A stretch of DNA of 32,000 bases, from the IMG/VR virus record IMGVR_UViG_3300032770_000004, positions 47,375-79,374 of that record; one strand, written 5' to 3'. Below the pieces are notes generated by a model. That model was not told where the DNA came from. It searched no databases and worked only from the letters and a program-made list of their open reading frames with translations. Below are positions 1,996 to 31,476 of the stretch, piece after piece (the first letter of the stretch is position 1; each line of letters opens with the position of its first letter). The position numbers and the translations under genes were made by a program. The stretch comes from a virus.

Positions 1996-2170
1996 GAAGC
2001 AACCCAAGTATTGGTATGTACACGTAATTGGAGAGTGTCCGATGTGTGGTAAGGATCAGAGCTATCGGCAGAGACGCTTTACGCCTAGACCCAACAATCC
2101 GTCTGATCGGGTCGAGTACATGTCTGAGGCGCTAGCCTATTGCGGTTGTATGGATCGGGAGTGGTACTAA
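1985..2170 (+). CDS. small zinc-ribbon-like protein
   Basis: The ORF-track start at 1979 is TTG; the first ATG is 1985. Motif: CPMCG...CGC. Overlaps its neighbours. Confidence 0.5.
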   Translation: MKSKKQPKYWYVHVIGECPMCGKDQSYRQRRFTPRPNNPSDRVEYMSEALAYCGCMDREWY

Positions 2171-2757
2171 TGTCAAAGCCAGTAGCCCTATTCGACCTAG
2201 ACGGCACACTAGCTGATTTTGACGGTGCCCTTGCTCGTGACCTACAGAGCATTACCAGTCCGTTCGAGAATCTTAAGGTCCAGGAGATTGCCAACCAAGA
2301 CGACAGGAATGATCCTCCTTGGCTCAAGGCACGCAAGAGCCTGATTAAGAAGCAACCTAACTGGTGGTTCAATCTTCAGCCGCTTCCGCTTGGTTTCAAG
2401 GTACTGGAGCTAGCTCGTAAGGTTGGCTTTCGTATTGTCATCTGCTCGCGTGGTCCTAAGCATAACGCCGATGCCTGGGCCCAGAAGGTTCTCTGGGTTC
2501 AAAAATACATTACTGGTCCACACAAGATCATCCTGGCCGACGAGAAGAACCTCGTGTATGGCCGCGTGCTGGTCGACGACTGGCCAGACTACGTAACACC
2601 CTGGCTTAACGCGCGCCCGCGTGGGAATGTCATCATGCCCGCCCATCGTTGGAATGAGAACTACACTCATGAACGTGTAGTCAAGTTGGCTACCGAAGCC
2701 GATTTGCCAGCGATAAGAATCATGCTAGAATCCCAGGTCAATAGGAACTCGAAATGA
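2170..2757 (+). CDS. 5'(3')-deoxyribonucleotidase-like HAD phosphatase (NT5C-type)
   Basis: N-terminal ALFDLDGTLADF (HAD DxDGT motif) and a late VLVDDWPDY motif. Start ATG 2170 overlaps the upstream TAA (TAATG). Confidence 0.7.
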   Translation: MSKPVALFDLDGTLADFDGALARDLQSITSPFENLKVQEIANQDDRNDPPWLKARKSLIKKQPNWWFNLQPLPLGFKVLELARKVGFRIVICSRGPKHNADAWAQKVLWVQKYITGPHKIILADEKNLVYGRVLVDDWPDYVTPWLNARPRGNVIMPAHRWNENYTHERVVKLATEADLPAIRIMLESQVNRNSK

Positions 2758-4361: not shown

Positions 4362-4367
4362 GTTGTC

Positions 4368-4451
4368 GTATCGTTGGCATGTCTGGTGATTGCGCCCGCC
4401 TGTTAAGCGGTGAGCGAAAGCTCTAGGAGGGTTCGATCCCCTCACGATACG
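4368..4451 (+). tRNA. 84-nt type-II-shaped tRNA with GUU (Asn) anticodon
   Basis: Perfect acceptor GTATCGT/ACGATAC, 3-bp D stem with 11-nt loop, anticodon stem CCGC/GCGG with loop CTGTTAA, variable arm GAGC-GAAA-GCTC, T arm GAGGG-TTCGATC-CCCTC, discriminator G. Confidence 0.7.
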
Positions 4452-4463
4452 AGGAGAAGAACA

Positions 4464-8066: not shown

Positions 8067-8266
8067 TGCTTATCGCCAAGATCGTTGTTTTGTACCTAGT
8101 TTTCTCGTTGGTCTGGCTCGGCGGGTGGTGGGTCTATGGCTATACGGCCGATGATCCATCAGGAGACGGTAGGATCGCCGCATTCTTCATGGGCTTGATG
8201 CCAATTCTTTGGCCCATTCTGCTGTTTCGCTGGATTCGGGATCGCAACCAGGAAGACGAAGAATGA
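8066..8266 (+). CDS. small membrane protein
   Basis: TAATG overlap; two hydrophobic helices. Confidence 0.65.
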   Translation: MLIAKIVVLYLVFSLVWLGGWWVYGYTADDPSGDGRIAAFFMGLMPILWPILLFRWIRDRNQEDEE

Positions 8267-8730
8267 AGAAGGTAGCCGTAACGCCCAACCGTATAGCCAT
8301 CGTGGATGACGGAGACTTTGAGAAGGTTTCTGGTTATTCTTGGAATCTACATAGCCAAGGTTATGCGACCGCTTATGTCGGCGGTGGGCGCAAGAAGCAG
8401 GCTTATGTTCTAATGCACCACTTAGTGGTGGGTAAGAACGTTGAAACCGATCACGTTAATGGCAACAAGCTCGATAATCAGCGCGCCAATTTGAGGCAGT
8501 GTTCCAGATCTCAGAACAACGCAAATCAGCGCAAGACTCGCGGATCTTCAAAATTTAAAGGTGTAAGGTTTCACAAGCAAAATCGCAAATGGACCGCCCA
8601 AATAGGCTTCAACAAAAAAAGCAAGTATTTGGGATCTTTTGATACTGAACTTGAGGCAGCTAGAGCTTATGATGTAGCAGCTAAAGAGCTTTTTGGAGTT
8701 TTTGCTCGCCTCAATTTGGAGGCAGAGTGA
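8263..8730 (+). CDS. HNH endonuclease with AP2-type DNA-binding domain
   Basis: Motifs: MHHLVVG...TDHVNGNKLDNQRANLRQCSRSQN (HNH_3-like), followed by KFKGVRFHKQNRKWTAQIGFNKKSKYLGSFDTELEAARAYDVAAKELFG (AP2-like). ATGA overlap at 8263. Confidence 0.85.
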   Translation: MKKVAVTPNRIAIVDDGDFEKVSGYSWNLHSQGYATAYVGGGRKKQAYVLMHHLVVGKNVETDHVNGNKLDNQRANLRQCSRSQNNANQRKTRGSSKFKGVRFHKQNRKWTAQIGFNKKSKYLGSFDTELEAARAYDVAAKELFGVFARLNLEAE

Positions 8731-9656
8731 TTACAGCAAGAGTAATAGCGGATTCGATTTATGAGGGCGGTATTCGTCTAACTACAATGATTTGGCGATA
8801 TCCAAGGTTTATTCATAGTGAGGTTATGACTCACAGAATGTTCAGCCGAAATGCTTCAAGCTCGCGTGCTATTCCTGTCGAGAAGATGATTGCGGCGGTA
8901 ATGGCCGATCCTGCCATGCCCGTGTTCTGGGGTAAAAACCAGCCGGGCATGCAGGCTGCTGAAGAGCTTGCGATGTACATTCCGGTACCTGAAGGCTATA
9001 AGGGTGAAAAGTTCATGTCGCTATCGCCCAAGCTTCCAGGGCCTAGAATGGAAGCGCAAGCAGAATGGCTTAAAGCTCGTGATCACGCAGTCGAGCATGT
9101 CAAGAAGTTGATGGAAATTGGTCTCCACAAACAGATCGCCAATCGTATTCTTGAGCCCTGGATGCACATCGAAGTTGTGGTGACAGCTACTGACTGGGCC
9201 AACTTCTATGCCCTGCGTCGTGACAAGAATGCTCAACCCGAAATGCAGGCTCTAGCGAACGCTGCCTTTGAAGTTCACAGCAAGTCTGTGCCGCGTATCC
9301 TGAAGCCAGGAGAATGGCATCTGCCTTTTGTCAGTCTCGATGAACAGGCTCGCACCTTAGATGCCCACGAATTTATCGACTGGGAGCTGCTATGTAAGAT
9401 AAGTGCTGCCCGATGTGCGCGCGTATCCTACTTGAAGCATGACGGCACCAAGGCGAGCGTCAATGAAGACCTAGAGCTGTTCAATCGCCTCATGGGTGGC
9501 GAGATTAAGCACGCCAGTCCCACGGAACATCAAGCGAAAGTACCAAGAGATCAAGAAGAATCAGAACATTACCGAAGCAATCTTTATAGATGGGTGAGTT
9601 TCCGTAAGCTCATTCCAGGGGAAAACATCAGTGAATTCAAAGAATTCAAACGGTAG
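8727..9656 (+). CDS. thyX: flavin-dependent thymidylate synthase ThyX
   Basis: The ThyX signature RHRxxSxxxxSxR is present as THRMFSRNASSSR. GTGA overlap start; a later ATG start is possible. Confidence 0.85.
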   Translation: MITARVIADSIYEGGIRLTTMIWRYPRFIHSEVMTHRMFSRNASSSRAIPVEKMIAAVMADPAMPVFWGKNQPGMQAAEELAMYIPVPEGYKGEKFMSLSPKLPGPRMEAQAEWLKARDHAVEHVKKLMEIGLHKQIANRILEPWMHIEVVVTATDWANFYALRRDKNAQPEMQALANAAFEVHSKSVPRILKPGEWHLPFVSLDEQARTLDAHEFIDWELLCKISAARCARVSYLKHDGTKASVNEDLELFNRLMGGEIKHASPTEHQAKVPRDQEESEHYRSNLYRWVSFRKLIPGENISEFKEFKR

Positions 9657-12725: not shown

Positions 12726-13136
12726 ATGTTACTATCAGCTCGAATGCTTAAAGACGTTGCGAACGTCAACGTATGGGAACCAGATACGCAGCTCAGTTGG
12801 ACTGAAGGCGATCAGCTTACCATCTACTTCCAACTCGTTGATATGTCGGTGGATAAGCCAGACCAAGGCTTCAATCCGCCTGGACGTCGTTACGTTCCTG
12901 CATCCGGTGCTACTCTCTCAGTCACTCTAGAGAACATTGACCAAGCCAAACAGCTAACTCGTTTTGCTGTACAGCCCTTTACTGGCGACGGAAGCATTTG
13001 GTCTCTTTCCATCATGAGCACCGATGTCATTCGTGGAACACCTCAGATGCGTCTCACTCTGACTGAAGGTGGCGTGGTCACTCGCGGTCTAGCCAAGTGC
13101 TCGATCAAGATTTGGCCCCAGGAGAACGTGACCTAA
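12726..13136 (+). CDS. hypothetical protein, possibly virion-associated
   Basis: ORF track. First gene after an intergenic gap that carries GTAATCT. Confidence 0.65.
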   Translation: MLLSARMLKDVANVNVWEPDTQLSWTEGDQLTIYFQLVDMSVDKPDQGFNPPGRRYVPASGATLSVTLENIDQAKQLTRFAVQPFTGDGSIWSLSIMSTDVIRGTPQMRLTLTEGGVVTRGLAKCSIKIWPQENVT

Positions 13137-13981
13137 TGGCATCTGATTACTCTAACAGCAAAGGCTTAAATGCCCCTGGCGTATATCCCGAAAACGCAGT
13201 AGACGCCGAGCTTCAGCGTCTAGAGCCCATCATCGGATTCGACGAGATTGTCTCCCGACACCTCTTCGGCATTCCCATGGTTAGCTACATGAAGGATCCA
13301 ATCACCGGCAAGAACGCCGTGATGACTCCAGAAATGGTCAAAGACATCATTGATGGAGCTGTACAGCAGGCCGAGGTTGAATGCAAGATTGACATCAGCC
13401 CCGTCAAGAGATCCGAAAAGTATCCGTTTGACAGGCATCTCTATGACTCCTACGGTTACTTCCAGGTCTTTCACCGTCCTGTCACTAGCATTACTAAGAT
13501 TTCGGTAACTCCTGCCAATCAGCAAGACGTTTACATTCTTCCTTTGGACTGGGTTGAAATGGGAAACATCATCCGTGGGCAGATTAATATCATCCCCATG
13601 ACAGCCGCCTTCATTCAGGGTGGTTACATTCCTGCCGGTTCAACTGGAGGCGCCTTCTTCTTGGCGATTCTCGGTAACCGAGCCTGGATTCCTGCATACT
13701 GGCAGATTGACTACACGAGCGGCTATCCTGATGGAATGGTACCTCGTATTGTCAACGAGCTGATCGGCACTATCGCAGCTCAGGAAATCCTGAGTATGCT
13801 AGCGGCTACCTATCGCATTTCATCCCACAGCATGGGTCTAGATGGCATGTCACAGAGTGTCTCACAGCCAGGACCCCAGATTTTCCAGGTGCGAATTGAA
13901 GACTTGGAGAACAAGAAAAAGCGCTTGACAAATCGTATCAAGGCGCTATATGGCCGCAAGATCTACACCTCGTCCTTGTAA
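13136..13981 (+). CDS. hypothetical protein, probable virion structural protein
   Basis: AGGAG SD; TAATG overlap at 13136. The structural role is inferred from context only. Confidence 0.65.
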   Translation: MASDYSNSKGLNAPGVYPENAVDAELQRLEPIIGFDEIVSRHLFGIPMVSYMKDPITGKNAVMTPEMVKDIIDGAVQQAEVECKIDISPVKRSEKYPFDRHLYDSYGYFQVFHRPVTSITKISVTPANQQDVYILPLDWVEMGNIIRGQINIIPMTAAFIQGGYIPAGSTGGAFFLAILGNRAWIPAYWQIDYTSGYPDGMVPRIVNELIGTIAAQEILSMLAATYRISSHSMGLDGMSQSVSQPGPQIFQVRIEDLENKKKRLTNRIKALYGRKIYTSSL

Positions 13982-13987
13982 GGTGCC

Positions 13988-14230
13988 ATGTTTAAAGAAT
14001 TCTTCATCATTACAGTTTGCCTCTTCTTCGGTGCCTGCGCCAGCTGGCAGCCTACGCCTCACGCAATCATGCGTCGTCAGGCCGAAGGCGAGCTGCGTGC
14101 CTGCATCATGGGCCAGTGCAATCGCATCAAGCAGTGTCTGAAGGAATCAGTGGTCAACTGCCGAAAGGTAGGACTAGAGGCTTCATGTGGTGCAGACGGC
14201 CTATTCATTGACCCCGTCGTTTGTAAGTGA
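13988..14230 (+). CDS. Cys-rich lipoprotein
   Basis: Signal peptide with lipobox: MFKEFFIITVCLFFGAC. Six further Cys residues in the mature part. Confidence 0.65.
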   Translation: MFKEFFIITVCLFFGACASWQPTPHAIMRRQAEGELRACIMGQCNRIKQCLKESVVNCRKVGLEASCGADGLFIDPVVCK

Positions 14231-14240
14231 GGTACAGTGA

Positions 14241-17024
14241 ATGTCAGCAACAAAGGACAAGCGAAAGGTCGCTAGTGTCGCCGTTATCCACGGCGGCAGG
14301 TTGCTATGGCTTTTGCGTGATGATTCCAAGAAGCTCTGCCTTCCTGGCGGCAAGTTTGAGGAAGGCGAGGAACCTCTCGACGCTGCTGTCCGTGAACTGA
14401 AAGAAGAGACCGGCATCGACGCTGAGCCCAAAGAGCTAGAGTTCTTGGGCAGCGAGAACGTGCCCGGTACCAAGCTCCACGTCTATTCGTTTAAGTATGA
14501 GCCAGAGAAAGCTCCCGAAATCGACCTTTCCAAGGATCCAGATAAGGAAGCGTGTGGCTATCACTGGTTCGAGGAACTTCCTTCTGAGGAAGAGCAATTC
14601 GTACCACAGGAGAGGAATGTCACGCTGCGTCTCCTTGGAATGGCCGTTCAAGACCTGAACAAGATGGCCATCAAGGACATTCGACCAGGACCAAAAATTG
14701 GATCCGACCGCATCTTTGACTATTCCCATATCCATCCTGGCTTGACAATTCACGAAATTCCCTTTTCGGACAAATGGCATCATCCTCATGTATTGGTAGC
14801 GAACATTCAACATGATCCTGAAAATTACTCGGAACAGTCGAATGTAGAAGGTACCCTCCTTGCGAACGGAATTCATGGTATTCCCGATCTGAATTTTACT
14901 TATTCGGAAGTTCATCCTGAACATCGAGGCCAAGGAATTGGCCGTAAAATGTATGAAGCCCTGATGGCACATGCGCTTCATAATTACGGCACTACCAGGG
15001 TTGTAGGCGGCCTTCACAGCACGCTAGCTCACGAAGCCCACAAGAAGCTATCTCAGAAGCACGGGTTTGAAGGCTATGACCCCAAACCCAATTGGGATCC
15101 AGAGTTTGAAGAGGAGCCTTTTCGCGGTCCATTCAATGATGCTTACGGAAAGTACTCCTATACCATCAAGTCCGAAAGCCTAGCTAAGTCTCAGCCAGAA
15201 TGGCGATCCAAGGATGGTCTGAAGATTCCTAAGAGTGGCACGCCTGCGCGTAAAGATTGGGATAAGGAATACCACAAGCGCCTTGTTGACGTATTCGCTG
15301 GTGGCGACAAAGAGCGTCTTAAGCTCGTGAAGATTCCGGTTACTCCAGCTCTTTCTGGAACCAATTTCGCTGGCAATAAGGATCGCTTGAATCTCTACTC
15401 TCGCATGATTCGTGGCGGCGACAAACTGCCTCCTGCTGTCGTTAAGCGTAATGGCATCGGCTGGCATGTCGTGGATGGCAATCATCGTGCCCAGGCTGCC
15501 TTGAATGCCCAGGTTCCCGAAATGCTCGCGTACGAGTTGATTGATCCTCCGAAGATGAAGAAGGCCGAAGAACCCTTCAAGGGTCTGGCCGAGCATATTG
15601 TTGGCTCGCTGACTGATGATTTACGAAAGCCCAAGTATAAGGGTCACGAGAACCCACTCGCAGGACACTGCTACGTCGCTTCAGAGGCTCTCTGGCACAT
15701 GTTGGGAGGCCCCGATAGTGGCTGGGTACCCCAGACAATTCGGCACGAAAACGACACGCACTGGTACCTGAAGCACAAGGACACCGGCAAGATTCTAGAT
15801 TTGACAGCTGGTCAGTTTAAGACACCAGTTCTCTACGATAAAGGTCGTGGTTGCGGATTCCTGACCAAAGAACCGTCGAAACTAGCCAAGGAATTGATCA
15901 ATCGAATCAACGTTCGACGCGCCCAGAAGAACGATCCAACCCTGAAGAAGGGTGTTCCTGGAGCTATGCTCGCAGCTGGTCTTTTGGCATCGCCTATTCA
16001 CACCGATGTGATGAAGCAGCCAGAACCAAAGGTCCAGCAACAACAAGTAGCTGCCTGGACTCCTGATGGACTAGATTCAGACCTAATTCCAATCGCTCAT
16101 CTGGAATCGAGCTTTGGCAAGAACATCAATCACGCTCCCAACCCAAAGGGCGAGTATTACACCGCTTACGGTGCCGTTGGCATGAAGCCAGTGACAGCCC
16201 ATGAAGAGTACAATAAGAATCAAACCCTTCAGAAGCTCTATCCGAACCTCAAGGATCCTGCTGAATTCATGAAGGCGATGAAGACTATCCCCCGCTTCTA
16301 CAATCTATTGGCATCAACACACTTCGCCCGGATGAAGCACCTCCATGGGTCTGCCGCCAAGGCCGCCTATGCATGGAGGCATGGCCATACTGCCGCTATG
16401 GGCGCATCTCCAGAACAAATTGACAGCGACTTGTATGTCCAAAAGTACCGCCATCTTGCGTCTCAGGCAGGTCTACAGAAAGGTGAGGACTTGATGAAAG
16501 CGATCAGCGACCTAAAGCCCGGTAAGCCAATGGATTTTGGGGTCGATTCTCAGTACTACGATTACAGCCATCTATTGGGATCTCCTGTTCTCAAAAAGAA
16601 GTACAAAATCATCCTCGCTCAAGCTCCCAATAGCTATCGTAATGGCCATCACCTCGAAGCCAAGATTTTCCATAGACCACCAGGAATGAGCAAAGAACAG
16701 GCGGCCGATTGGACTAACTGGCAGAACATTGGTCACCTTAGAAGCAATACAGCCGGACGGTTACTTTACCCATCAGTGGCCAAGTTAGATCCAGCCCATC
16801 AAGGTCGTGGACTAGGCAAGGCCTTGTATCTCGCTACTTTCAAGCACGGCCAGCACTTCTTAAAGACCCACACCATTGCCGGTGAAGTTCACAGCTCCAT
16901 GGCCCATCGTGTCCACGAATCAATCGCCAAGGAACACGGTCTCGCCTACAATGCCCACAAGTACGGACCAGAGATTGGCCCGAATGATGGTGCGTACGGC
17001 GAATACGAATACGCCCTGAAATAA
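14241..17024 (+). CDS. 927-aa polyvalent multidomain protein (NUDIX, GNAT-like, ParB-like, SLT-like, GNAT-like)
   Basis: Perfect NUDIX box GKFEEGEEPLDAAVRELKEETGI. GNAT motif A-like HRGQGIGRKMYEAL and HQGRGLGKALYLAT. ParB/sulfiredoxin-like VVDGNHRA. SLT-like LESSFGKN...AYGAVGMKP. GAGG SD. Confidence 0.85.
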   Translation: MSATKDKRKVASVAVIHGGRLLWLLRDDSKKLCLPGGKFEEGEEPLDAAVRELKEETGIDAEPKELEFLGSENVPGTKLHVYSFKYEPEKAPEIDLSKDPDKEACGYHWFEELPSEEEQFVPQERNVTLRLLGMAVQDLNKMAIKDIRPGPKIGSDRIFDYSHIHPGLTIHEIPFSDKWHHPHVLVANIQHDPENYSEQSNVEGTLLANGIHGIPDLNFTYSEVHPEHRGQGIGRKMYEALMAHALHNYGTTRVVGGLHSTLAHEAHKKLSQKHGFEGYDPKPNWDPEFEEEPFRGPFNDAYGKYSYTIKSESLAKSQPEWRSKDGLKIPKSGTPARKDWDKEYHKRLVDVFAGGDKERLKLVKIPVTPALSGTNFAGNKDRLNLYSRMIRGGDKLPPAVVKRNGIGWHVVDGNHRAQAALNAQVPEMLAYELIDPPKMKKAEEPFKGLAEHIVGSLTDDLRKPKYKGHENPLAGHCYVASEALWHMLGGPDSGWVPQTIRHENDTHWYLKHKDTGKILDLTAGQFKTPVLYDKGRGCGFLTKEPSKLAKELINRINVRRAQKNDPTLKKGVPGAMLAAGLLASPIHTDVMKQPEPKVQQQQVAAWTPDGLDSDLIPIAHLESSFGKNINHAPNPKGEYYTAYGAVGMKPVTAHEEYNKNQTLQKLYPNLKDPAEFMKAMKTIPRFYNLLASTHFARMKHLHGSAAKAAYAWRHGHTAAMGASPEQIDSDLYVQKYRHLASQAGLQKGEDLMKAISDLKPGKPMDFGVDSQYYDYSHLLGSPVLKKKYKIILAQAPNSYRNGHHLEAKIFHRPPGMSKEQAADWTNWQNIGHLRSNTAGRLLYPSVAKLDPAHQGRGLGKALYLATFKHGQHFLKTHTIAGEVHSSMAHRVHESIAKEHGLAYNAHKYGPEIGPNDGAYGEYEYALK

Positions 17025-17041: not shown

Positions 17042-19168
17042 ATGGAAGACGGAATTGAGCAGTTACTACAGGTAGATGATCCGATTGAGCGCAAGCTTGC
17101 TCTCAAGTCGAAGATTGTCGAGCCTTATCATCTTCGAATGGCACTCATGGATGAAGATCCAGATGTTCGCCTTGCCGCAGCCAAACATCCCAGTCTCACG
17201 CCAGAACTGATTAAGGAAGTCTTGCGTGGTGATGACAAATGGCTAGCAGAGCAGATTCTTCAACGTCCTGATTTGCGCCCAGAAGAGCTTGAGCACGCTT
17301 TAGCCGATCCAGACCTTAGGGGAACCGCAGCCAAGCATCCAGCGCTCTCTGAAGCCCAGCGGAACGCCTTAATCGAGGATCCTGAGACCCCAGACGGAGC
17401 CAGAGAACAGGCAGCCCAGGGCCTCATCAAGAACATTGGCGTGTTGACATATCCGCAGCTCGGTGAAGGCCGAGCCTATTCCATGCCGATGATTATTGAC
17501 CACCGTCCTGATGACAATATTCGTGGAACTACTGTCTACAACGCTAAGCGTACTCAGCCGATGAAGCCGGGCCAGGGTTATCTCTATAGCCACACCTCGG
17601 GCCATAATCCACAGGCCGAGCATGCTGGTGAAAGCCACGAAGCACAGCACATTCTCTTTGCCAAGCTTAAGCAGCGTTTCGGCCGCGAGGCTGGTTATCG
17701 CATCATCGCCAACACGCTTGCCGGTCTTGACCATGAGCATCGCCAGCATGTCTTCAATCTTCTGGACGCACATAAGCCCAAGTCTGCTCAGGATCCAATC
17801 CAGCGACCGGAAGAGGCTATTGCATATCTCCACAACTACCTGATGGATCCAGACCATCGACGCCAAGTTCATGTCAATATGCGTATCAGCCAGAACATTA
17901 ACGCCATGCGCGCGAGCGTGCAGAAGGCACGTAAGGCTTGGCATATGCTACGTGCTAGAGCTGAGGCTCTACGTCCAGAGGAAGTGGGCGTGCAGGTCAA
18001 GAAAGACGAACAGGTCATCGGTGATTGGGTTGAGAAGCTCAAGAAAAGCCAAGACGTTGATGATCCAAAAGTTGCAGACCATGTCGGAATGGACATGAAG
18101 CTGCCTGTTTTGTTACAGGCGGTCAAGTTCCTAACAGGCAAGGAGTTGGATCCAAGCATCGTACGACGCCATCTTATTGAGCAGGACGATGACATGAAGG
18201 AAGCCGTTCTTGCGGCAGCCGGTTTGACATCAAAAGAAGAACGCAAAGCTTTTGATGCCATTATGGATTTAGCTGAGCTGAATAAGTCTGAGGCAAAAGT
18301 AGACGCCAAAGACATTCAGGCACTTCTACCAGAAGATGAGCCTGTCGCTAAAGAAGTCCGCTGGTCATTCCAGCACGGAGAAGTCAAACCCGTAAAGCTC
18401 GGCGGTAAACACAGTAAGGGCACGTTGCTAGCAAAGGATTCAGACGGTCGCCTGCTTCTAATCAAGCCTGGATCCGGCAAGATTTCGCCAATCCGTGGAG
18501 CGCGCGAGGAAAAGGCCAATCAATCCCGTCGCGAGGCTGCATTCTCGTCTGTGGCTCGTTCTTGGGGTTTCAATCGTACTGTCCCTAGGGCTACGCTTCT
18601 AATCATCGATGGCAAGGAAATGGCGGTTATTGACATGTTGCCTTTGGATTGGTCGAATCTTCACAAGACTCGCATGGTGGATCCAACCGTTCCACAGAAG
18701 GCACTACGTGACTATCTAGACAGAGGTATTGTTCACAAATGGGCCGTGCTCGATTATGTACTCGGCAATGGAGATCGCCATGGTATGAACATGATGGTAT
18801 CGCCAGCCGATGAAAATCACAAGATCGCTCTCATTGACCATGGGTCGGCATTTGCTGGTTCTTCATTTGATCCTGGCCAGGACAAGAGCGCCTTTGTGCC
18901 CTACTATCTGCGCGCCTGGGGTCCACAGAAGGGCTTCATGAAGCTTAGCGAGAAGCAAAAGCTCGATACGATGCCCGTTCTTCACGAAACAAAGGATTTC
19001 GAACTACGAGATTGGATCGTCAAGCTCTCTGAAGAGGAGCTTGCTGCCCGTCTTCACCGTTTTGGCATCAACCCAGAACCAAGCGTTGAGCGCCTAAAAG
19101 CACTCAAGAATGCTGTGGCTCAAGCCAAGAGCGCGTCGCGTGTAATCAACGAGTTCTGGATCAAGTAA
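17042..19168 (+). CDS. 708-aa protein: N-terminal LRV/HEAT-like repeats plus C-terminal PI3/PI4-kinase-like catalytic domain
   Basis: Repeats DPDVRLAAAKHPSLTPELI and DPDLRGTAAKHPALSEAQ. Catalytic loop LGNGDRHGMNMMV at 18764-18790, and IDHGSAF at 18833-18853. Confidence 0.8.
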   Translation: MEDGIEQLLQVDDPIERKLALKSKIVEPYHLRMALMDEDPDVRLAAAKHPSLTPELIKEVLRGDDKWLAEQILQRPDLRPEELEHALADPDLRGTAAKHPALSEAQRNALIEDPETPDGAREQAAQGLIKNIGVLTYPQLGEGRAYSMPMIIDHRPDDNIRGTTVYNAKRTQPMKPGQGYLYSHTSGHNPQAEHAGESHEAQHILFAKLKQRFGREAGYRIIANTLAGLDHEHRQHVFNLLDAHKPKSAQDPIQRPEEAIAYLHNYLMDPDHRRQVHVNMRISQNINAMRASVQKARKAWHMLRARAEALRPEEVGVQVKKDEQVIGDWVEKLKKSQDVDDPKVADHVGMDMKLPVLLQAVKFLTGKELDPSIVRRHLIEQDDDMKEAVLAAAGLTSKEERKAFDAIMDLAELNKSEAKVDAKDIQALLPEDEPVAKEVRWSFQHGEVKPVKLGGKHSKGTLLAKDSDGRLLLIKPGSGKISPIRGAREEKANQSRREAAFSSVARSWGFNRTVPRATLLIIDGKEMAVIDMLPLDWSNLHKTRMVDPTVPQKALRDYLDRGIVHKWAVLDYVLGNGDRHGMNMMVSPADENHKIALIDHGSAFAGSSFDPGQDKSAFVPYYLRAWGPQKGFMKLSEKQKLDTMPVLHETKDFELRDWIVKLSEEELAARLHRFGINPEPSVERLKALKNAVAQAKSASRVINEFWIK

Positions 19169-23934: not shown

Positions 23935-24019
23935 TACCCTAGGAGAGATTCGGACTCTCAACCTTCCGGGTCATTACTCCGGCTGCTCTGGCCAATTGGA
24001 GCTACTAGGGCGAACTTCT

Positions 24020-24304
24020 TCAGTTCTTGAGGGTAATAGGATCGACCTCGTCCTCGGACTCGGGCTTGTCGCCTCCGCGCATCCTTTCGAACTCGGTCGG
24101 TTCAGGCATCGTGTTCACGAGTCCTTGCAGTAGGCTCTTGATGTTGTTGTGAACCTGGGGTTCGGCCGGGTGGAATCGATGCTTGTAGCACCACGTGCTA
24201 ATGGCGTCGACCAAATCGGTGGCAAGCTCCTGCATATGCTTACCGGATTCACCCCTGAAATTGCTGGCATCTACTTCTTGTACTACGTCTTTGGGATTGC
24301 TCAT
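24020..24304 (-). CDS. hypothetical protein
   Basis: ATGA overlap with the RNA ligase gene stop. Confidence 0.65.
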   Translation of the reverse strand: MSNPKDVVQEVDASNFRGESGKHMQELATDLVDAISTWCYKHRFHPAEPQVHNNIKSLLQGLVNTMPEPTEFERMRGGDKPESEDEVDPITLKN

Positions 24305-25332
24305 TTTTGTTCTCTCTTGAGTTGATTTGCTACCATTACCTCACGCATCCAATGAGCGTGGGTGGTCACGTGACCCTTACGAACGTATTTTCCCACGGAC
24401 TCTTTGAATTGTCTATAGGGAAACGACGACGCACTTCTAACTACATACCCTTCACATGGATCTCCTTGGTATTCCGGAATGTACAGGTTTTCGATTTTGG
24501 AGCGATCTCCGGGTCCGCGATAGAGCGTGGGAACCATTTGCAGCCCCAGCAACGCACACCATTCTACGGTCTCATCCCACGACAGAATTTCGTTCTTCTC
24601 GTTCCAGATGGAGAAGACCTGGAACCAGTCATCGAGATTGAGATAGTGGATACTGTGTTTGGCATAAAGGTTTTCGCCACAGATACGCCAGCCTTCGGGA
24701 ATCTCGTAAGAGATTCGACCGTGCAGAGATTTAACCCAGTTGCGGCTGGGGTGAGGCTCGTGAGTCAGCGAGCGGGCATGGATGAAGTCCTTGTACATGG
24801 TGGTATTCTCGCCATCCATCTTGATGGTAGCGATCACTTCTCGGCCCTTGAATGGATCGGGATTTGTCATCATTCGATCGTCTTTGGTGAGCCCAGGACT
24901 CCAAGGTAGATGATATGTACGAGGATACTTGACGTGCGTGGTAAAGAGAGTGAGAGCACCACCGTCTCCGAGAATCTTTTGAACGGACTGATCAAAGAAG
25001 AGATCACCACGCAATCTGGTGCCATTGGGAAGAACAGGATTCCCCCATTTGTCATAGATCTGATCGTTGTAGAGGTGCGGAGGCAGGATCGCCTTTCGAA
25101 TTCCAGCGGCCTCTCTGATCTGCTCAACCGAGAGCTTGGTCTGTTCAGCTTCCATATGATGAAGGCCGCACAAACTAGCACCGTTGTCCAGATAATAGCC
25201 CTCATCGGGCCATAGGCGGCGCTCGATAATGTGGTGAGCATCAACCGCTGGCGCCTTGCAAATGACGCACTGATGATTGTCGCGCTCGAAGACCCCTTCT
25301 CGGAATTGATCGCGAGTTTTAAGGTCGCTCAT
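24301..25332 (-). CDS. HNH domain fused to an RNA ligase (Rnl2/PF09414-like nucleotidyltransferase)
   Basis: N-terminal HQCVICKAPAVDAHHIIERRLWP...NGASLCGLHH. Ligase motif I is IKMDGEN; later motifs are ICGENLY, EGYVVR and GKYVRKGH. Confidence 0.8.
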   Translation of the reverse strand: MSDLKTRDQFREGVFERDNHQCVICKAPAVDAHHIIERRLWPDEGYYLDNGASLCGLHHMEAEQTKLSVEQIREAAGIRKAILPPHLYNDQIYDKWGNPVLPNGTRLRGDLFFDQSVQKILGDGGALTLFTTHVKYPRTYHLPWSPGLTKDDRMMTNPDPFKGREVIATIKMDGENTTMYKDFIHARSLTHEPHPSRNWVKSLHGRISYEIPEGWRICGENLYAKHSIHYLNLDDWFQVFSIWNEKNEILSWDETVEWCALLGLQMVPTLYRGPGDRSKIENLYIPEYQGDPCEGYVVRSASSFPYRQFKESVGKYVRKGHVTTHAHWMREVMVANQLKREQK

Positions 25333-25550
25333 GGCTCCTTAGTGATTGGCAGACGCAACAAATCGAGAGCAGCTTGGAGTTGGTTGGCTCGTTGAGTCTC
25401 TGCCAAATGACGTAGAACAGCCTTCATAAGCTGATCATTCGTCTTGAACAAGACTGCCCTAAGGGCCTGAATCTCTTTCAGGGCGGCAGGCAAATTGGTA
25501 GGTAGCGGAGGACCATCCTGGCGGTTTCTCTCGAATGGGTCAGACATCAT
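25329..25550 (-). CDS. hypothetical protein
   Basis: ATGA overlaps at both ends. Confidence 0.65.
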   Translation of the reverse strand: MMSDPFERNRQDGPPLPTNLPAALKEIQALRAVLFKTNDQLMKAVLRHLAETQRANQLQAALDLLRLPITKEP

Positions 25551-26380
25551 CTACCTCCGTGTCCAAAGGAAGTGGGTCTCCACATTCCTAAGTAGTTTCC
25601 TACTTCTAGTACGACCCGATGCAGTTTGTCAAGGTCTGCTCTCTTGTCGTTGATTATCTTACAGCTGAACCACCAATCAGGAATAGAGTCTTGGTCCTGT
25701 TCACTTACGTGAGCGCTGAAGCTCGCTGCCCGTTCTTCTGGATTGACAACAAGAATGGGAGCACCACCGAGCGCCTTAACCGAAAGAATCTCATTACGGA
25801 AACGCCCATCGCTGATAATCGCAACGGCTGGGCGTTCTGGGCCAGGAATGTGACCCTTGATTTTGTCGTATGTGCCACCTTCAGATAGAATCTTTACGGC
25901 TAGGTCTCGCGCGTGATCAGCCCAGATGGTGGGCTTGATCGATCGGCCAAACTCAGTACCGAGAGTTTGGAGAATGTATCTTGGGGTGGTCTCACGGGCC
26001 AGACTATCGTGGTCGGCTACCATACCGAGCCAGTCATTAAGCTTGCCATAAACATAGCCGCGTTGACTATGGCCAAATTTAAATCCCAGTTCATTTAGCC
26101 AGTTGCTGACGGTCATTCCCTTAGAAAGAATGTGAAAGTTACGATGCAAGTCATGCCAATCGTAACCGAAGAGTTTAGGATCAAGAGAGACCGGCTTGTT
26201 TCGCATCTCGCTGGGTCCCCAGAGCTGTTCTTCTGTAAAGCCGAAGAGCTGCATCGCGAAGCGCTTAAGAGGATCAGCTTGAGCGATGACAACACCGTTG
26301 AATTCTTTCTGGAGAATTGAAGCTACTGTATCCTTTCCTGATCCTGCCTTTCCTGCTAAAATTACAAGTGGATATTGCAT
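25547..26380 (-). CDS. P-loop kinase, T5-type dNMP kinase-like
   Basis: Walker A GKAGSGKDT, LQTLGTEFGR, ISDGRFRNE, HVSEQ. GGAG lies 7 nt upstream of ATG 26380. The ORF-track start at 26530 overlaps the upstream gene. Confidence 0.7.
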   Translation of the reverse strand: MQYPLVILAGKAGSGKDTVASILQKEFNGVVIAQADPLKRFAMQLFGFTEEQLWGPSEMRNKPVSLDPKLFGYDWHDLHRNFHILSKGMTVSNWLNELGFKFGHSQRGYVYGKLNDWLGMVADHDSLARETTPRYILQTLGTEFGRSIKPTIWADHARDLAVKILSEGGTYDKIKGHIPGPERPAVAIISDGRFRNEILSVKALGGAPILVVNPEERAASFSAHVSEQDQDSIPDWWFSCKIINDKRADLDKLHRVVLEVGNYLGMWRPTSFGHGGR

Positions 26381-26418
26381 CGACTGTTCTCCAAAGCTTT
26401 CAATTGTTGGGATCACTC

Positions 26419-26616
26419 TCAGGTCTTGTGGCCGCTCTTCAAGAATCCCAATAGTATCACAGCAGCGAAGGCTTGCCAGTATCCAATGTGTGGCATGATC
26501 GTGAAGCCACTTGCTCCGAGATAATTCCACACTATCTTGAATATAGCAGGCTGGCCGAACAACAGGATTAGGTATCCTAAAAGTTCGCCCAGCTGCTCTT
26601 CAATCGACTTTTCCAT
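26419..26616 (-). CDS. small membrane protein
   Basis: The ORF-track start at 26628 is GTG. ATG 26616 has an AAGGA SD and follows the upstream TAA. Confidence 0.6.
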   Translation of the reverse strand: MEKSIEEQLGELLGYLILLFGQPAIFKIVWNYLGASGFTIMPHIGYWQAFAAVILLGFLKSGHKT

Positions 26617-29515: not shown

Positions 29516-29779
29516 ATGACGAATTATCGTTTAACTCCGGAACAATACCAAGAAATTTGGGAAAAACAAGGGCGTTGTTGCGCGGTCTGTAAGGCAACCA
29601 AAAACTCTATTGAGGCCAGATCCTTTCCAGTAGATCATGATCACATGACGGGTATGGTTCGAGGGATTCTTTGTAATTCGTGTAATTTAGCCATAGGGCA
29701 TCTGAAGGAAGATCCGCGACTCCTAGAGTCTGCTTTGAGATACCTAAATGCGAGCCCCGCTTTGGAGAAAACAGAATGA
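29516..29779 (+). CDS. endonuclease VII-type HNH nuclease
   Basis: Motif: GRCCAVCKA...PVDHDHMTGMVRGILCNSCNLAIGHL...ALRYL. Paralogous in motif to 9631-10080. Confidence 0.85.
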   Translation: MTNYRLTPEQYQEIWEKQGRCCAVCKATKNSIEARSFPVDHDHMTGMVRGILCNSCNLAIGHLKEDPRLLESALRYLNASPALEKTE

Positions 29780-31476
29780 ATGCCATTTGGGTTTACATCT
29801 CGTGGTCGGCTGACCAGATCGACCGAATTCTTGAAGATGCAAAGAGAACTGACGAAATCGAGAACGTTCAGCGCATCATGCAGGCTATTGACAATGGCAA
29901 CGAATTGTGGAAGAGTTGGGCTCTTTCTCATGATGGAACTGTTGTATCCATGTCGGGGACAGAGGGCTGTATCAAGATTGGCGCCGACCATCTTGCGGAT
30001 CTCGTAGAACTGAGAGAACGTTACTCTAAGGCGACTAAGTCGACCGTCAGTGTGGGTGTAGCTCCAAAGCTCAGTGAATCTGAAATCGCACTCCAGCGTG
30101 CTCAGAGTGAAGGTGGAGACCGGATCCAGCTCTTCATGGAAGAGGATAGTCGAGACGATGAAGGTAAGCTCTCCAAGGCCGACAAGCCTGCACTTAATTC
30201 CCCAGCCGCTGGTGGCGGAATGACTGGGCCTTCGATGGCTCCTGCCGCAGCGCCAGCTGCGCCTGTAGCTGAAGGAAGCGAGCATAGCGAGAATGAAGCT
30301 CTTCAGAATTTGATTGACACGACTCCACCACCTCCCGAAGCGTCTGGTCCAGACATGGATCAATTAAAGGACTTTTTGTCAAGCTCCGCAGATGCACAGG
30401 GGCAAAAGGACACAGCTGAAGCCGATGCTGCCCAGAGTGCTAATGACAAAGCAGAAGGACAAAAGGATATTAAGGCACAAATCCTTAAGATCCTCAAAGT
30501 CTGGAAGACTCGCGGCGTAGAGCTTGAGAAGCTATCCGAAAAAGACCCGGAGCTATACAAGTCCATGGTCGGCATGCTTCAGACCATGGTCGCCATGGCT
30601 AAAGAACTGTTCGGAGAGAATCCTGCTGAACCTGAAGCACAGGAGCCTGAATCCGGATCGGAAACTGTCTCTAAGTCTGAATTTCAAAAGGCTTTCCCTG
30701 GAGACTATCCTCCTAGTGATCGAATTGCTATCGATGCGATGGGAGAAGCCGGGGGTATGCTTAAGCAGCACAAGGGTGTCGGGAATGTACTTAAGCAGAA
30801 GGCTGCCGCTGCTAAAAGGCAAGCTTTGGCTGGAATCCCAGATCCCGGTAACTTAGGAACTCCAAATGGTCGATGCAAAATGTGCGGAACGGCCTACGAG
30901 ATGGGGCCGCACGATACGCTGTGCCAGGATTGCGACACCAATGTAGGGCCAACCGCTGCTGGTGGCGCGGGCTCGAAGGCCAAGCAATACGCTCTAAACT
31001 ACAGAATTCATGATGTTGCCAATCGCAATTCGGCTGAACGACAAAACAATCAAATCCCACTAACGGACATTGGAGGCCGAGCCTACGATGTCAATTCCAT
31101 TGATTACCCAGAACTAGGTAGAGCGGCCGAATACGGTATGACTACTGCTGAAAAGCAATCGATGCCAGTAGAGCATGGCTACGAGCGTCCCAACGCTTAT
31201 GGCCCTACTTCCTTAGCGGCAATGCGCGATCGAGCTAGGAAGCAGGGGCTTCTTGGCAAGGCCGCTCTCGAAGCCGGTAAGACCGGCCGCCACAACGTCG
31301 TTCTACCTCCTGGTTCTCAGAAGGACGCAGCAGCCAATGGCTCGCGTGACAGTGGACAAATCAAGATATTGGATCCAGCCACAGGCAGGACCAAATGGCG
31401 CTCCGTTCGCGCAGGTCTTGTAATGGCTCCTGATGGCACTCCCGTTTCTTCTCGCAATCCTTCTGGTGGAAAGTGA
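29776..31476 (+). CDS. 566-aa protein: structured N-terminal domain, long acidic Ala/Pro/Glu-rich linker, C-terminal Cys4 motif (scaffold or internal-protein-like)
   Basis: ATGA overlap; GGAG upstream. Motif: CKMCG...CQDCD. The low-complexity centre is AAAPAAPVAEGSEHSENE... Confidence 0.75.
   Translation: MNAIWVYISWSADQIDRILEDAKRTDEIENVQRIMQAIDNGNELWKSWALSHDGTVVSMSGTEGCIKIGADHLADLVELRERYSKATKSTVSVGVAPKLSESEIALQRAQSEGGDRIQLFMEEDSRDDEGKLSKADKPALNSPAAGGGMTGPSMAPAAAPAAPVAEGSEHSENEALQNLIDTTPPPPEASGPDMDQLKDFLSSSADAQGQKDTAEADAAQSANDKAEGQKDIKAQILKILKVWKTRGVELEKLSEKDPELYKSMVGMLQTMVAMAKELFGENPAEPEAQEPESGSETVSKSEFQKAFPGDYPPSDRIAIDAMGEAGGMLKQHKGVGNVLKQKAAAAKRQALAGIPDPGNLGTPNGRCKMCGTAYEMGPHDTLCQDCDTNVGPTAAGGAGSKAKQYALNYRIHDVANRNSAERQNNQIPLTDIGGRAYDVNSIDYPELGRAAEYGMTTAEKQSMPVEHGYERPNAYGPTSLAAMRDRARKQGLLGKAALEAGKTGRHNVVLPPGSQKDAAANGSRDSGQIKILDPATGRTKWRSVRAGLVMAPDGTPVSSRNPSGGK

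Follow-up and report, generated by a model that had tools for sequence, protein, structure and literature searches.

The window analysed here is a 32,000-nucleotide stretch of viral DNA (IMG/VR record IMGVR_UViG_3300032770_000004, positions 47,375 to 79,374), and our subject is one long open reading frame (ORF) on its plus strand, at 14241..17024. The ORF starts with ATG and encodes a protein of 927 amino acids (aa; 103.8 kDa), reproducing exactly the limits and length given in an earlier note on this DNA. A protein identical to it is recorded on four metagenomic contigs, the longest of 169,962 bp. The earlier note proposed six modules along the chain. By Pfam, PHROG and PDB profiles and by AlphaFold2 (AF2) models searched with Foldseek, all six stand with graded certainty, and the motifs quoted for them lie at the claimed residues to within one position. 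Judged from these assignments, the ORF encodes a predicted polyvalent multi-enzyme protein of six modules.

The N-terminal module (aa 1–135; 14241..14645, +) is a predicted NUDIX hydrolase. Pfam PF00293 matches the isolated segment at E=5e-17 and the whole protein at 57.2 bits against a cut-off of 21.1 (E=2e-15). The Nudix box GX5EX7REUXEEXGU occupies aa 37–59 with zero deviations. These matches firmly indicate membership of the NUDIX superfamily. The nearest PDB structures are generic MutT/ADP-ribose pyrophosphatases (E from 6e-5 to 1e-3), and PADLOC returned only generic NUDIX similarity (PDC-S07), with no pointer to a defence system.

A GNAT-like cassette, referred to as cassette A (aa 136–312; 14646..15176, +), follows directly. 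It opens with the head DLNKMAIKDIRPG..FDYSH and closes with the tail YGKYSYTIK, and its motif-A-like stretch HRGQGIGRKMYEAL lies at aa 228–241. Cassette A scores above the Pfam cut-offs for both PF13508 (Acetyltransf_7; 41.1 bits against 27) and PF00583 (Acetyltransf_1; 39.7 against 20.7). The second copy, cassette B (aa 746–927; 16476..17021, +), has the head DLMKAISDLKPG..YDYSH and the tail YGEYEYALK, after which comes the stop codon; its GNAT-like motif HQGRGLGKALYLAT lies at aa 853–866. Cassette B alone falls below the Pfam threshold (E=0.04), and its assignment draws on its homology to cassette A (E=6e-16). The acyl-CoA pyrophosphate-binding motif A (Q/R-x-x-G-x-G/A) is kept in both, as RGQGIG in A and QGRGLG in B. 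In a search of PDB with the cassette profile, GNATs were the sole matches, at a weak E=0.002. Each unit is a GNAT cassette with its own N-terminal extension.

The similarity of the two cassettes was evident in a self-comparison. By BLASTP of aa 1–330 against aa 331–927, residues 116–310 align with residues 728–927 at 27% identity (E=6e-16), so that the internal repeat is far beyond chance. Both copies share the opening DL.K(M)AI.D[IL].PG...[FY]DYSH and the close ..AYG.Y.Y..K, and copy B terminates at the stop codon. The internal duplication described earlier is thus a pair of true paralogs. A recent tandem duplication is ruled out by the 27–29% identity between the copies and by their placement in different cassette lineages. 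In a neighbour-joining tree of 46 cassettes, A clusters with the copies that follow NUDIX modules and B with the C-terminal copies that follow lytic-transglycosylase (SLT)-like modules. This topology fits the earlier proposal of two ancestral units and indicates that A and B belong to two old paralogous lineages, with NUDIX-GNAT and SLT-GNAT as the recurring dyads. By an exhaustive profile search, the cassette family numbers 556 representative clusters, of which 302 reach E<=1e-30. Almost all of its proteins are 500–2500 aa long, with up to 5–7 cassettes each.

Between the two cassettes lie a ParB-type module, a YunG-like module, a hydrophobic segment and the SLT-like module. The ParB/sulfiredoxin-type N-domain, of an NTP-binding/nuclease class, is predicted at aa 313–445 (15177..15575, +), where VVDGNHRA (aa 410–417) contains the DGNHR box (aa 412–416). 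This segment of the 927-aa protein gave zero Pfam matches on its own. A profile built from 20 homologous segments matched PDB entry 7bnk at E=3.9e-6, and also Spo0J and Noc, with the alignments running over DGNHR. Pfam ParB_N (PF02195) was matched by 12 of the 20 homologous segments (best E=8e-7), and the module matched phrog_1033 at E=0.003.

The module at aa 446–570 (15576..15950, +) had been left without a name in the earlier note, and we could place it in the YunG (PF24585)/phrog_12251 group, a family whose function is unassigned. The phrog_12251 match is clear (E=1e-21). PF24585 scores 23.4 bits in the 927-aa protein, below its cut-off of 27, and 29.9 bits in a relative (P0043). The segment GHCYVASEALWHMLGG occupies aa 475–490, THWYL aa 506–510 and ILDLTAGQF aa 518–526. 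These stretches bear an invariant Cys477 at a helix start, then His507 and Asp520 on strands, in an AF2 model with a predicted local distance difference test score (pLDDT) of 90.1. The modelled Cys-His-Asp arrangement hints at a thiol enzyme. On the other hand, the profile had zero matches among PDB sequences, and Foldseek searches of the model against PDB and BFVD gave nothing significant or interpretable. The module also exists as a free-standing protein of about 105 aa in Caulobacter phiCbK-like phages.

A Gly/Ala-rich hydrophobic segment, GVPGAMLAAGLLASPI (aa 571–586; 15951..15998, +), comes next. It is the hydrophobicity peak of the whole protein, with the Kyte-Doolittle maximum at aa 572–586, and is modelled by AF2 with low pLDDT. 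The homologues have an equivalent G/A-rich hydrophobic stretch before the SLT-like module. A hydrophobic anchor ahead of a putative muralytic domain would imply an envelope location.

The module behind it (aa 587–745; 15999..16475, +) is assigned a lysozyme fold and is lytic-transglycosylase-like. Its AF2 model, computed from a 28-sequence alignment, has a pLDDT of 90.8. By Foldseek, the top 25 PDB matches are all Slt70, MltE or GH23 structures, with probabilities of 0.63–1.0, template modelling (TM) scores of about 0.5 and a best E of 0.02. LESSFGKN is found at aa 621–628 and AYGAVGMKP at aa 642–650, and Glu622-Ser623 is invariant across the 28 sequences. G-x-x-G-M-K and A-Y-A-W-R-x-G in this module resemble the GLMQ and AYNxG motifs known from the family. 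The segment of the 927-aa protein itself had no Pfam match, and the 28-sequence profile had no match among PDB sequences; Pfam SLT (PF01464) was matched by 5 of the 28 homologous segments (best E=6e-4).

Myxococcus phage Mx1 (169.6 kb, contractile tail) is the sole characterised relative. We take the virus carrying the 927-aa ORF to be Mx1-like, with a contractile tail and a genome of about 170 kb. The ortholog in Mx1 (OR576727.2) is the 1479-aa 'NUDIX hydrolase' WNM70333.1, followed by the gene for the 'kinase' WNM70334.1. The two genomes share the order thymidylate synthase, 136-aa gene, adaptor-like gene of about 280 aa, polyvalent gene, kinase-like gene and then another four conserved genes. 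The same layout is seen in two metagenomic contigs of about 160 kb, where the genes for a scaffold-like protein and the major capsid protein lie a few kb upstream. A megablast of the polyvalent gene against 50,697 phage records found nothing, and neither did a search of IMG/VR with the Mx1 major capsid protein for Mx1-like capsid loci. The placement of the gene among virion genes, as suggested earlier, agrees with the synteny, with an adaptor-like PHROG match upstream and with a 'virion structural protein' match downstream.

By a word-indexed homologue search we collected 47 relatives, and modules and motifs were counted on 48 proteins. Mapping the six modules on these proteins revealed many orders, 0–3 GNAT cassettes and large uncharacterised inserts. 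Some relatives have additional effector modules. ART-PolyVal is found in P0030 and in the Mx1 ortholog (E=2.8e-16 in the latter), and ADPrib_exo_Tox in P0043. PI3/PI4-kinase-like domains are fused to the polyvalent protein in four relatives (P0022, P0023, P0039 and P0042), and in P0045 NUDIX is fused to an XkdF-type prohead protease. Pfam scans found neither ART-PolyVal nor MPTase in the 927-aa protein, and MPTase in no scanned relative. Polyvalent proteins, of phages or conjugative elements, are characterised by 2–15 functionally unrelated domains per chain in variable architectures, a description that fits the six modules here and the 48 shuffled relatives. Given the module shuffling and the extra effector modules, the 927-aa protein therefore belongs to the polyvalent proteins as Iyer et al. 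(2017) defined them.

By comparing the module boundaries, we found that a short motif recurs at the junctions. Internal GNAT cassettes end in Y.Y.[LI]-K-[S/A]-E, whereas C-terminal cassettes end in ...LK. Across the 48 proteins, 115 of 122 K[SA]E occurrences lie outside module cores, where 45% would be expected inside (p=3e-22), and the seven within cores belong to the Nudix box PGGK.E. Five control tripeptides showed no bias between cores and junctions. The extended form Phi.K[SA]E is found 88 times outside module cores and once inside. The motif was then counted in 137 further representatives, drawn from clusters at 50% identity and not used in motif discovery. These contain 188 sites against 23.5±3.4 in shuffled sequences, an 8-fold excess, and the controls were flat. 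The distance between sites peaks at 100–250 aa, the size of a domain.

The cassette ends locate the boundary more precisely. [KR].[ED] directly follows about 165 of 199 internal cassettes (KSE in 84, KAE in 18) and none of 14 C-terminal copies, which stop at K or just before it. Proteins with the cassette first start M|S-D-E-L.KMAI or M|A-D-D-L.KMAV, which align with the internal K|S-E-D-L.KMAI. The natural N-termini and C-termini of the cassettes therefore both fall on the K|[S/A] bond. We rejected a phiKZ-type S/A/G-x-E reading, since it would need a Glu one position past the conserved E, which is present at only 23 of 114 sites.

We also notice that many NUDIX-first relatives (P0004–P0012, P0019, P0022, P0023, P0031, P0033, P0046 and P0047) begin M-(K/R/I)-L-G-K-S-Q-R-(D/E)-K. 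This places Phi-x-K-S at residues 3–6, which recalls a minimal N-terminal propeptide or a targeting tag. No such element opens the 927-aa protein (MSATKDKRK...).

In the 927-aa protein, the first canonical site is T-I-K-S-E at aa 308–312 (15162..15176, +), at the end of cassette A and with a second L-A-K-S after it. The second is M-K-K-A-E at aa 439–443 (15555..15569, +), the positional equivalent of KVKKSEEP in relatives. Two further junctions are degenerate: K-N-D at aa 563–565, at the end of the YunG-like module, and L-Q-K-G-E at aa 745–749, at the start of cassette B, each in the position of K-S-E in relatives. The junction between NUDIX and cassette A is unmarked, likewise in other NUDIX-GNAT dyads. 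Cutting at the canonical sites would give a NUDIX-GNAT piece of 35.4 kDa (isoelectric point, pI, 5.6), a ParB piece of 14.6 kDa (pI 9.9) and a YunG-anchor-SLT-GNAT piece of 53.9 kDa that is possibly divided further.

Such a motif need not imply cutting. The protein might be packaged and injected as one uncut chain, as for the N4 virion RNA polymerase (vRNAP) or plasmid ArdC/TraC1, with K-[S/A]-E serving as a linker, a capping element or a cassette-boundary footprint that enables shuffling. Shuffling does occur exactly at the motif boundaries, the natural cassette ends match the motif, and joining '...LK' to 'SE...' creates it automatically. Some polyvalent proteins are delivered unprocessed (PMC5512222), and several junctions of the 927-aa protein are without the motif. 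However, unrelated modules (NUDIX, ParB, YunG, SLT, GNAT and uncharacterised inserts) all end in Phi-x-K and start with [S/A]-E. The codons differ between the two canonical sites (AAG TCC GAA and AAG GCC GAA), hence there is no DNA-level repeat to drive recombination. An SLT piece with a hydrophobic anchor and cytoplasmic enzymes would also need different destinations. The occurrence of the motif in head proteins, described next, likewise speaks against an uncut chain, and we regard that explanation as unlikely.

The motif is present in proteins of the head that do not shuffle. In the scaffold-like protein encoded upstream of the capsid gene, it occurs five times in Mx1 (WNM70326.1), three times in locus L003 and four times in the divergent locus L004. 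Two sites are found in the Mx1 portal, one close to either terminus. Of the 31 sites in the whole Mx1 genome, 20 belong to the block from the portal to the gene before the sheath, which makes up 19% of the proteome; the density is 0.199 per 100 aa in this block and 0.026 elsewhere (7.7-fold, p=4e-8). The K-S-E form is found 15 times in the block and once outside. A motif common to the head proteins of a phage group is what a prohead-protease substrate site should be, and the scaffold-like protein, the portal and the Mx1 block all conform to this pattern. In SPN3US and phiKZ, the scaffold, portal and ejection proteins are cut repeatedly at a short motif by the prohead protease (PMC10052503).

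A candidate processing enzyme is encoded in Mx1, where the 'prohead protease' WNM70322.1 has an N-domain (about aa 1–230) similar to gp3.2, the head maturation protease of SPO1. This domain had no match in Pfam or among PDB sequences and only a weak PHROG match. The literature yielded nothing usable on where prohead proteases of the SPO1/Herelleviridae type cut. As general background, cleavage of HK97 gp5 takes place at K103|S104. The Mx1 protease (L002:13002-16721; homologue at L003:1-459) is a giant multidomain protein of 1239 aa. A copy of the N-terminal segment of the capsid protein (KAMEAGNFNA.PSTL.GGSA.Q.E) follows its protease domain, and its C-terminal part is PI3/PI4-kinase-like, with a weak match in the L003 homologue and a stretch DRNDGNYML..HIDNA.

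The distribution of the motif also bears on two other explanations. One is autocatalysis, in which the YunG-like module would be a papain-like peptidase taking the role that Iyer et al. give to the MPTase domain. The order Cys477/His507/Asp520 and the secondary structure resemble a papain/NlpC-P60 core, faint Foldseek matches include MepS, Josephin, a coronavirus papain-like protease and a phage 'transglutaminase', and most family members have the module. But all the peptidase-like matches have a probability of at most 0.15 and TM below 0.3, and five relatives without the module (P0016, P0026, P0031, P0039 and P0041) retain the junction motif. Scaffold and portal proteins, the classic substrates of prohead proteases, have the motif too, and the free-standing phiCbK-like version of the module also speaks against a role in self-processing. 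We consider autocatalysis very unlikely.

The other is that the protein never enters the virion and works as a late cytoplasmic multi-enzyme in nucleotide housekeeping and in cell-wall remodelling or lysis. NUDIX enzymes are often house-cleaning, ThyA is encoded 4.6 kb upstream of the polyvalent gene, and in Mx1 thymidylate synthase and deoxynucleoside monophosphate (dNMP) kinase lie between the capsid gene and the polyvalent gene. Against this, the ParB module, the SLT module with its anchor, and the ART-PolyVal, kinase and prohead-protease fusions of relatives are typical of delivered effectors, and Mx1 has a separate endolysin. Conserved morphogenesis genes stand on both sides of the polyvalent gene, and the motif is specific to the head block. 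A purely cytoplasmic role seems to us quite improbable.

What is observed are the identified domains, the shuffled order of the modules, the junction motif with its statistics, and the conserved gene order. On this ground we favour a model in which the 927-aa protein is a head-packaged effector polyprotein that the maturation protease cuts in trans and that is ejected together with the DNA. We infer packaging, cleavage, ejection and targets, and hold the model as a whole to be on balance probable. That the protein is a polyvalent effector we accept, as a separate point, with high confidence. In the model, the protein would be made late and enter the prohead along with the neighbouring kinase-like protein. 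An SPO1-type prohead serine protease would then cut in trans at the Phi-x-K-[S/A]-E punctuation, at K310/S311-E312 and K441/A442-E443, and perhaps also at the two degenerate sites, K563-N-D and K747-G-E. The predicted pieces are an acidic NUDIX-GNAT, a basic ParB and a YunG-transmembrane-SLT(-GNAT).

All pieces would then leave the head with the DNA, the anchored SLT piece to act upon envelope peptidoglycan. In the cytoplasm, host nucleotides, proteins and DNA would be the targets of the NUDIX, GNAT, ParB and kinase pieces during the first minutes of infection. Physical separation of the modules would make sense, because the SLT anchor implies the envelope and the NUDIX, GNAT, ParB and kinase parts would be cytoplasmic. 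The earlier note had raised a polyprotein cut after the Y.Y..K tail. A junction motif that includes the K of this tail does mark the module boundaries and is common to scaffold-like proteins; the cleavage itself stays a prediction.

The host nucleotide targets are plausibly of the NAD/ADP-ribose (ADPR) type. This theme comes from ART-PolyVal in Mx1 together with the Nampt, Nmnat and macro-domain genes of that phage, and is suggestive only. Naming particular effector targets, whether second messengers, NAD/ADPR or acetylation, is speculation. We notice that Mx1 locus L006 (record positions 119182-127421) encodes a nicotinamide phosphoribosyltransferase, a nicotinamide-nucleotide adenylyltransferase and a macro-domain protein. 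Taken together with ART-PolyVal and NUDIX, these genes suggest a broad NAD/ADP-ribose counter-defence theme in the phage group.

Several observations weigh against this model. Of the five junctions in the 927-aa protein, only two have a canonical site, and the other three have a degenerate one or none. Among the neighbouring window proteins, the kinase-like one has the motif once and the orthologs of the remaining Mx1 block proteins do not have it, and it is much sparser in this phage than in Mx1; the scaffold, capsid and protease genes of this phage are located outside the window. The limits of the Mx1 block were set after part of the site list had been seen. The Mx1 major capsid protein is without a canonical site and has a K-A-M-E variant only. 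The homologues are phylogenetically related, so that the motif counts are not fully independent and the p-values overstate independence. The pattern is compatible with a cut at K|S or after E, the SLT assignment consists of a fold match with modest E-values (0.02) and motif conservation, and the Mx1 paper is a genome announcement only.

The Mx1 ortholog WNM70333.1 is the closest known system. It has five of the same module types, the same upstream (136-aa and ~280-aa) and downstream kinase-like genes, and the same motif. In contrast, its order is YunG, GNAT, an uncharacterised part, ART-PolyVal, NUDIX, SLT, ParB and a tail; it has one GNAT cassette where two are found here, and it carries ART-PolyVal and about 550 extra residues. 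Identity per module is 27–67%, and no DNA similarity was found.

The polyvalent proteins surveyed by Iyer, Burroughs, Anand, de Souza and Aravind (2017; PMC5512222) likewise combine many unrelated effector domains per chain in variable architectures. Their genes lie beside virion genes, and they share a repertoire of GNAT, ParB, kinase, ART and peptidoglycan hydrolase domains. They differ in that the MPTase (zincin) domain is the proposed processor, whereas here a motif cleaved in trans and common to scaffold proteins is proposed. NUDIX, the anchor domain here, is barely mentioned in that survey, and the GNAT cassette of the present family is repeated up to 5–7 times. The Dar system of phage P1 (DarB, DdrB) similarly places large multi-domain anti-defence proteins in the head, and DdrB has a ParB-type domain and is proteolytically processed (PMC5512222). 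The domains there, however, are methylase-helicase and MPTase, and we found no sequence relationship.

In T4 (IPI–III and Alt; L/I-x-E, read by gp21) and in phiKZ, 201phi2-1 and SPN3US (A/S/G-x-E; PMC10052503), the maturation protease also reads a short Glu-containing motif. This motif recurs in scaffolds or propeptides and in packaged, ejected proteins, and the Alt ART and vRNAP subunits are delivered in this way. Unlike the present case, cleavage there removes N-terminal targeting propeptides, whereas the motif here lies between enzymatic domains. The consensus here is Phi-x-K-[S/A]-E, the protease is SPO1-like and not T4 gp21-like, and the cleavage is predicted.

Nudix and ART domains have been predicted to be commonly head-packaged in myoviruses (Iyer et al., 2022; PMC9503650). 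The T4 NudE-like Nudix domains fused to MuF, portal or capsid-processing peptidase in that study resemble the present protein in placing NUDIX among late or head genes, as the protease fusion of P0045 does. Those proteins are solo or two-domain fusions, whereas here NUDIX is part of a six-module chain. The polyvalent class is therefore already known, and the idea of a virion Nudix is already published. What appears to be new is the conserved punctuation motif common to scaffold proteins, which could replace MPTase-based autoprocessing, together with the size and repeat behaviour of the GNAT-like cassette family and the recurrent NUDIX-GNAT and anchor-SLT-GNAT dyads.

Among the neighbouring genes, the kinase-like protein of 708 aa (17042..19168, +) has an LRV/HEAT-like N-terminus and a PI3/PI4-kinase-like C-terminus (PF00454, E=1.7e-9). 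It contains one L-N-K-S-E at aa 413–417 and is syntenic with the Mx1 'kinase'; a kinase of this kind is unusual in a structural module of a phage. Upstream, a conserved morphogenesis gene of 294 aa (13097..13981, +) is the ortholog of Mx1 WNM70332 (44% identity by tblastn), and its product matches phrog_772 (E=7e-24) and the head-tail adaptor phrog_442 (E=7e-5). The putative lipoprotein gene noted earlier before the polyvalent ORF is an 80-aa ORF (13988-14230, +), which does have a signal-peptide-like start and a lipobox-like site, FFGAC. No lipoprotein gene is annotated at the equivalent position of Mx1. A sibling contig that encodes the identical polyvalent protein has a homing-endonuclease gene of the Endonuclease_7/HTH_7 type (L008:108-755) inserted just upstream of the putative lipoprotein ORF.

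Elsewhere in the window, a 566-aa ORF (29776-31476, +) has an N-terminal mCpol (minimal CRISPR polymerase) domain (PF18182, E=1e-8, above the cut-off) and one strict junction-type V-S-K-S-E. Mx1 and its relatives have a 'nucleotide cyclase'/GGDEF gene within the head-gene block, which raises the question of a packaged cyclase. A homing-endonuclease-like ORF with HNH_3 and AP2 domains (8209-8730, +) overlaps the start of thymidylate synthase (8727-9656). RNA ligase, dNMP kinase and NT5C-type 5'-nucleotidase genes are located at 24301-25332 (-), 25547-26530 (-) and 2140-2757 (+), respectively; the dNMP kinase differs from that of Mx1 in location and strand. The window has seven tRNA genes (171-1145, 4367-4452 and 23935-24011): five are clustered at its start (Met, Gly-GCC, Gly-TCC, Trp and Asn), another is a further tRNA-Asn, and the last, on the minus strand, is a tRNA-Ile whose anticodon, AAT, is unusual.

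In its most general form, our proposal is a 'punctuated effector array', in which interchangeable enzyme cassettes would be strung together in whatever order and number, with a five-residue mark between them for the capsid maturation protease to read, in Mx1-like phages and in the more than 500 cassette-bearing protein clusters. We put this generalisation forward tentatively, as one that may well not extend so far. The host of Mx1, Myxococcus xanthus, is reported to have defences that include CBASS and type III CRISPR (PMC11506125). Mx1 is cultured and M. xanthus is genetically tractable, hence the proposal is testable at once.

If the motif is not a protease site, the 927-aa protein is another well-annotated member of the polyvalent class. 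The NUDIX-GNAT dyad, the ParB-type domain, the widespread YunG-like Cys-His-Asp domain and the distinct GNAT-like cassette, with its more than 500 clusters, are candidate early-acting effectors. If the motif is a maturation-protease site, it would explain how one long gene supplies both periplasmic and cytoplasmic enzymes and why the modules shuffle freely in evolution, and it would provide a sequence rule that predicts the mature virion proteome of this group of ~170-kb phages. A punctuated array, if true, would be the double-stranded DNA phage counterpart of RNA-virus polyproteins, in which one gene delivers a customisable enzyme cocktail.

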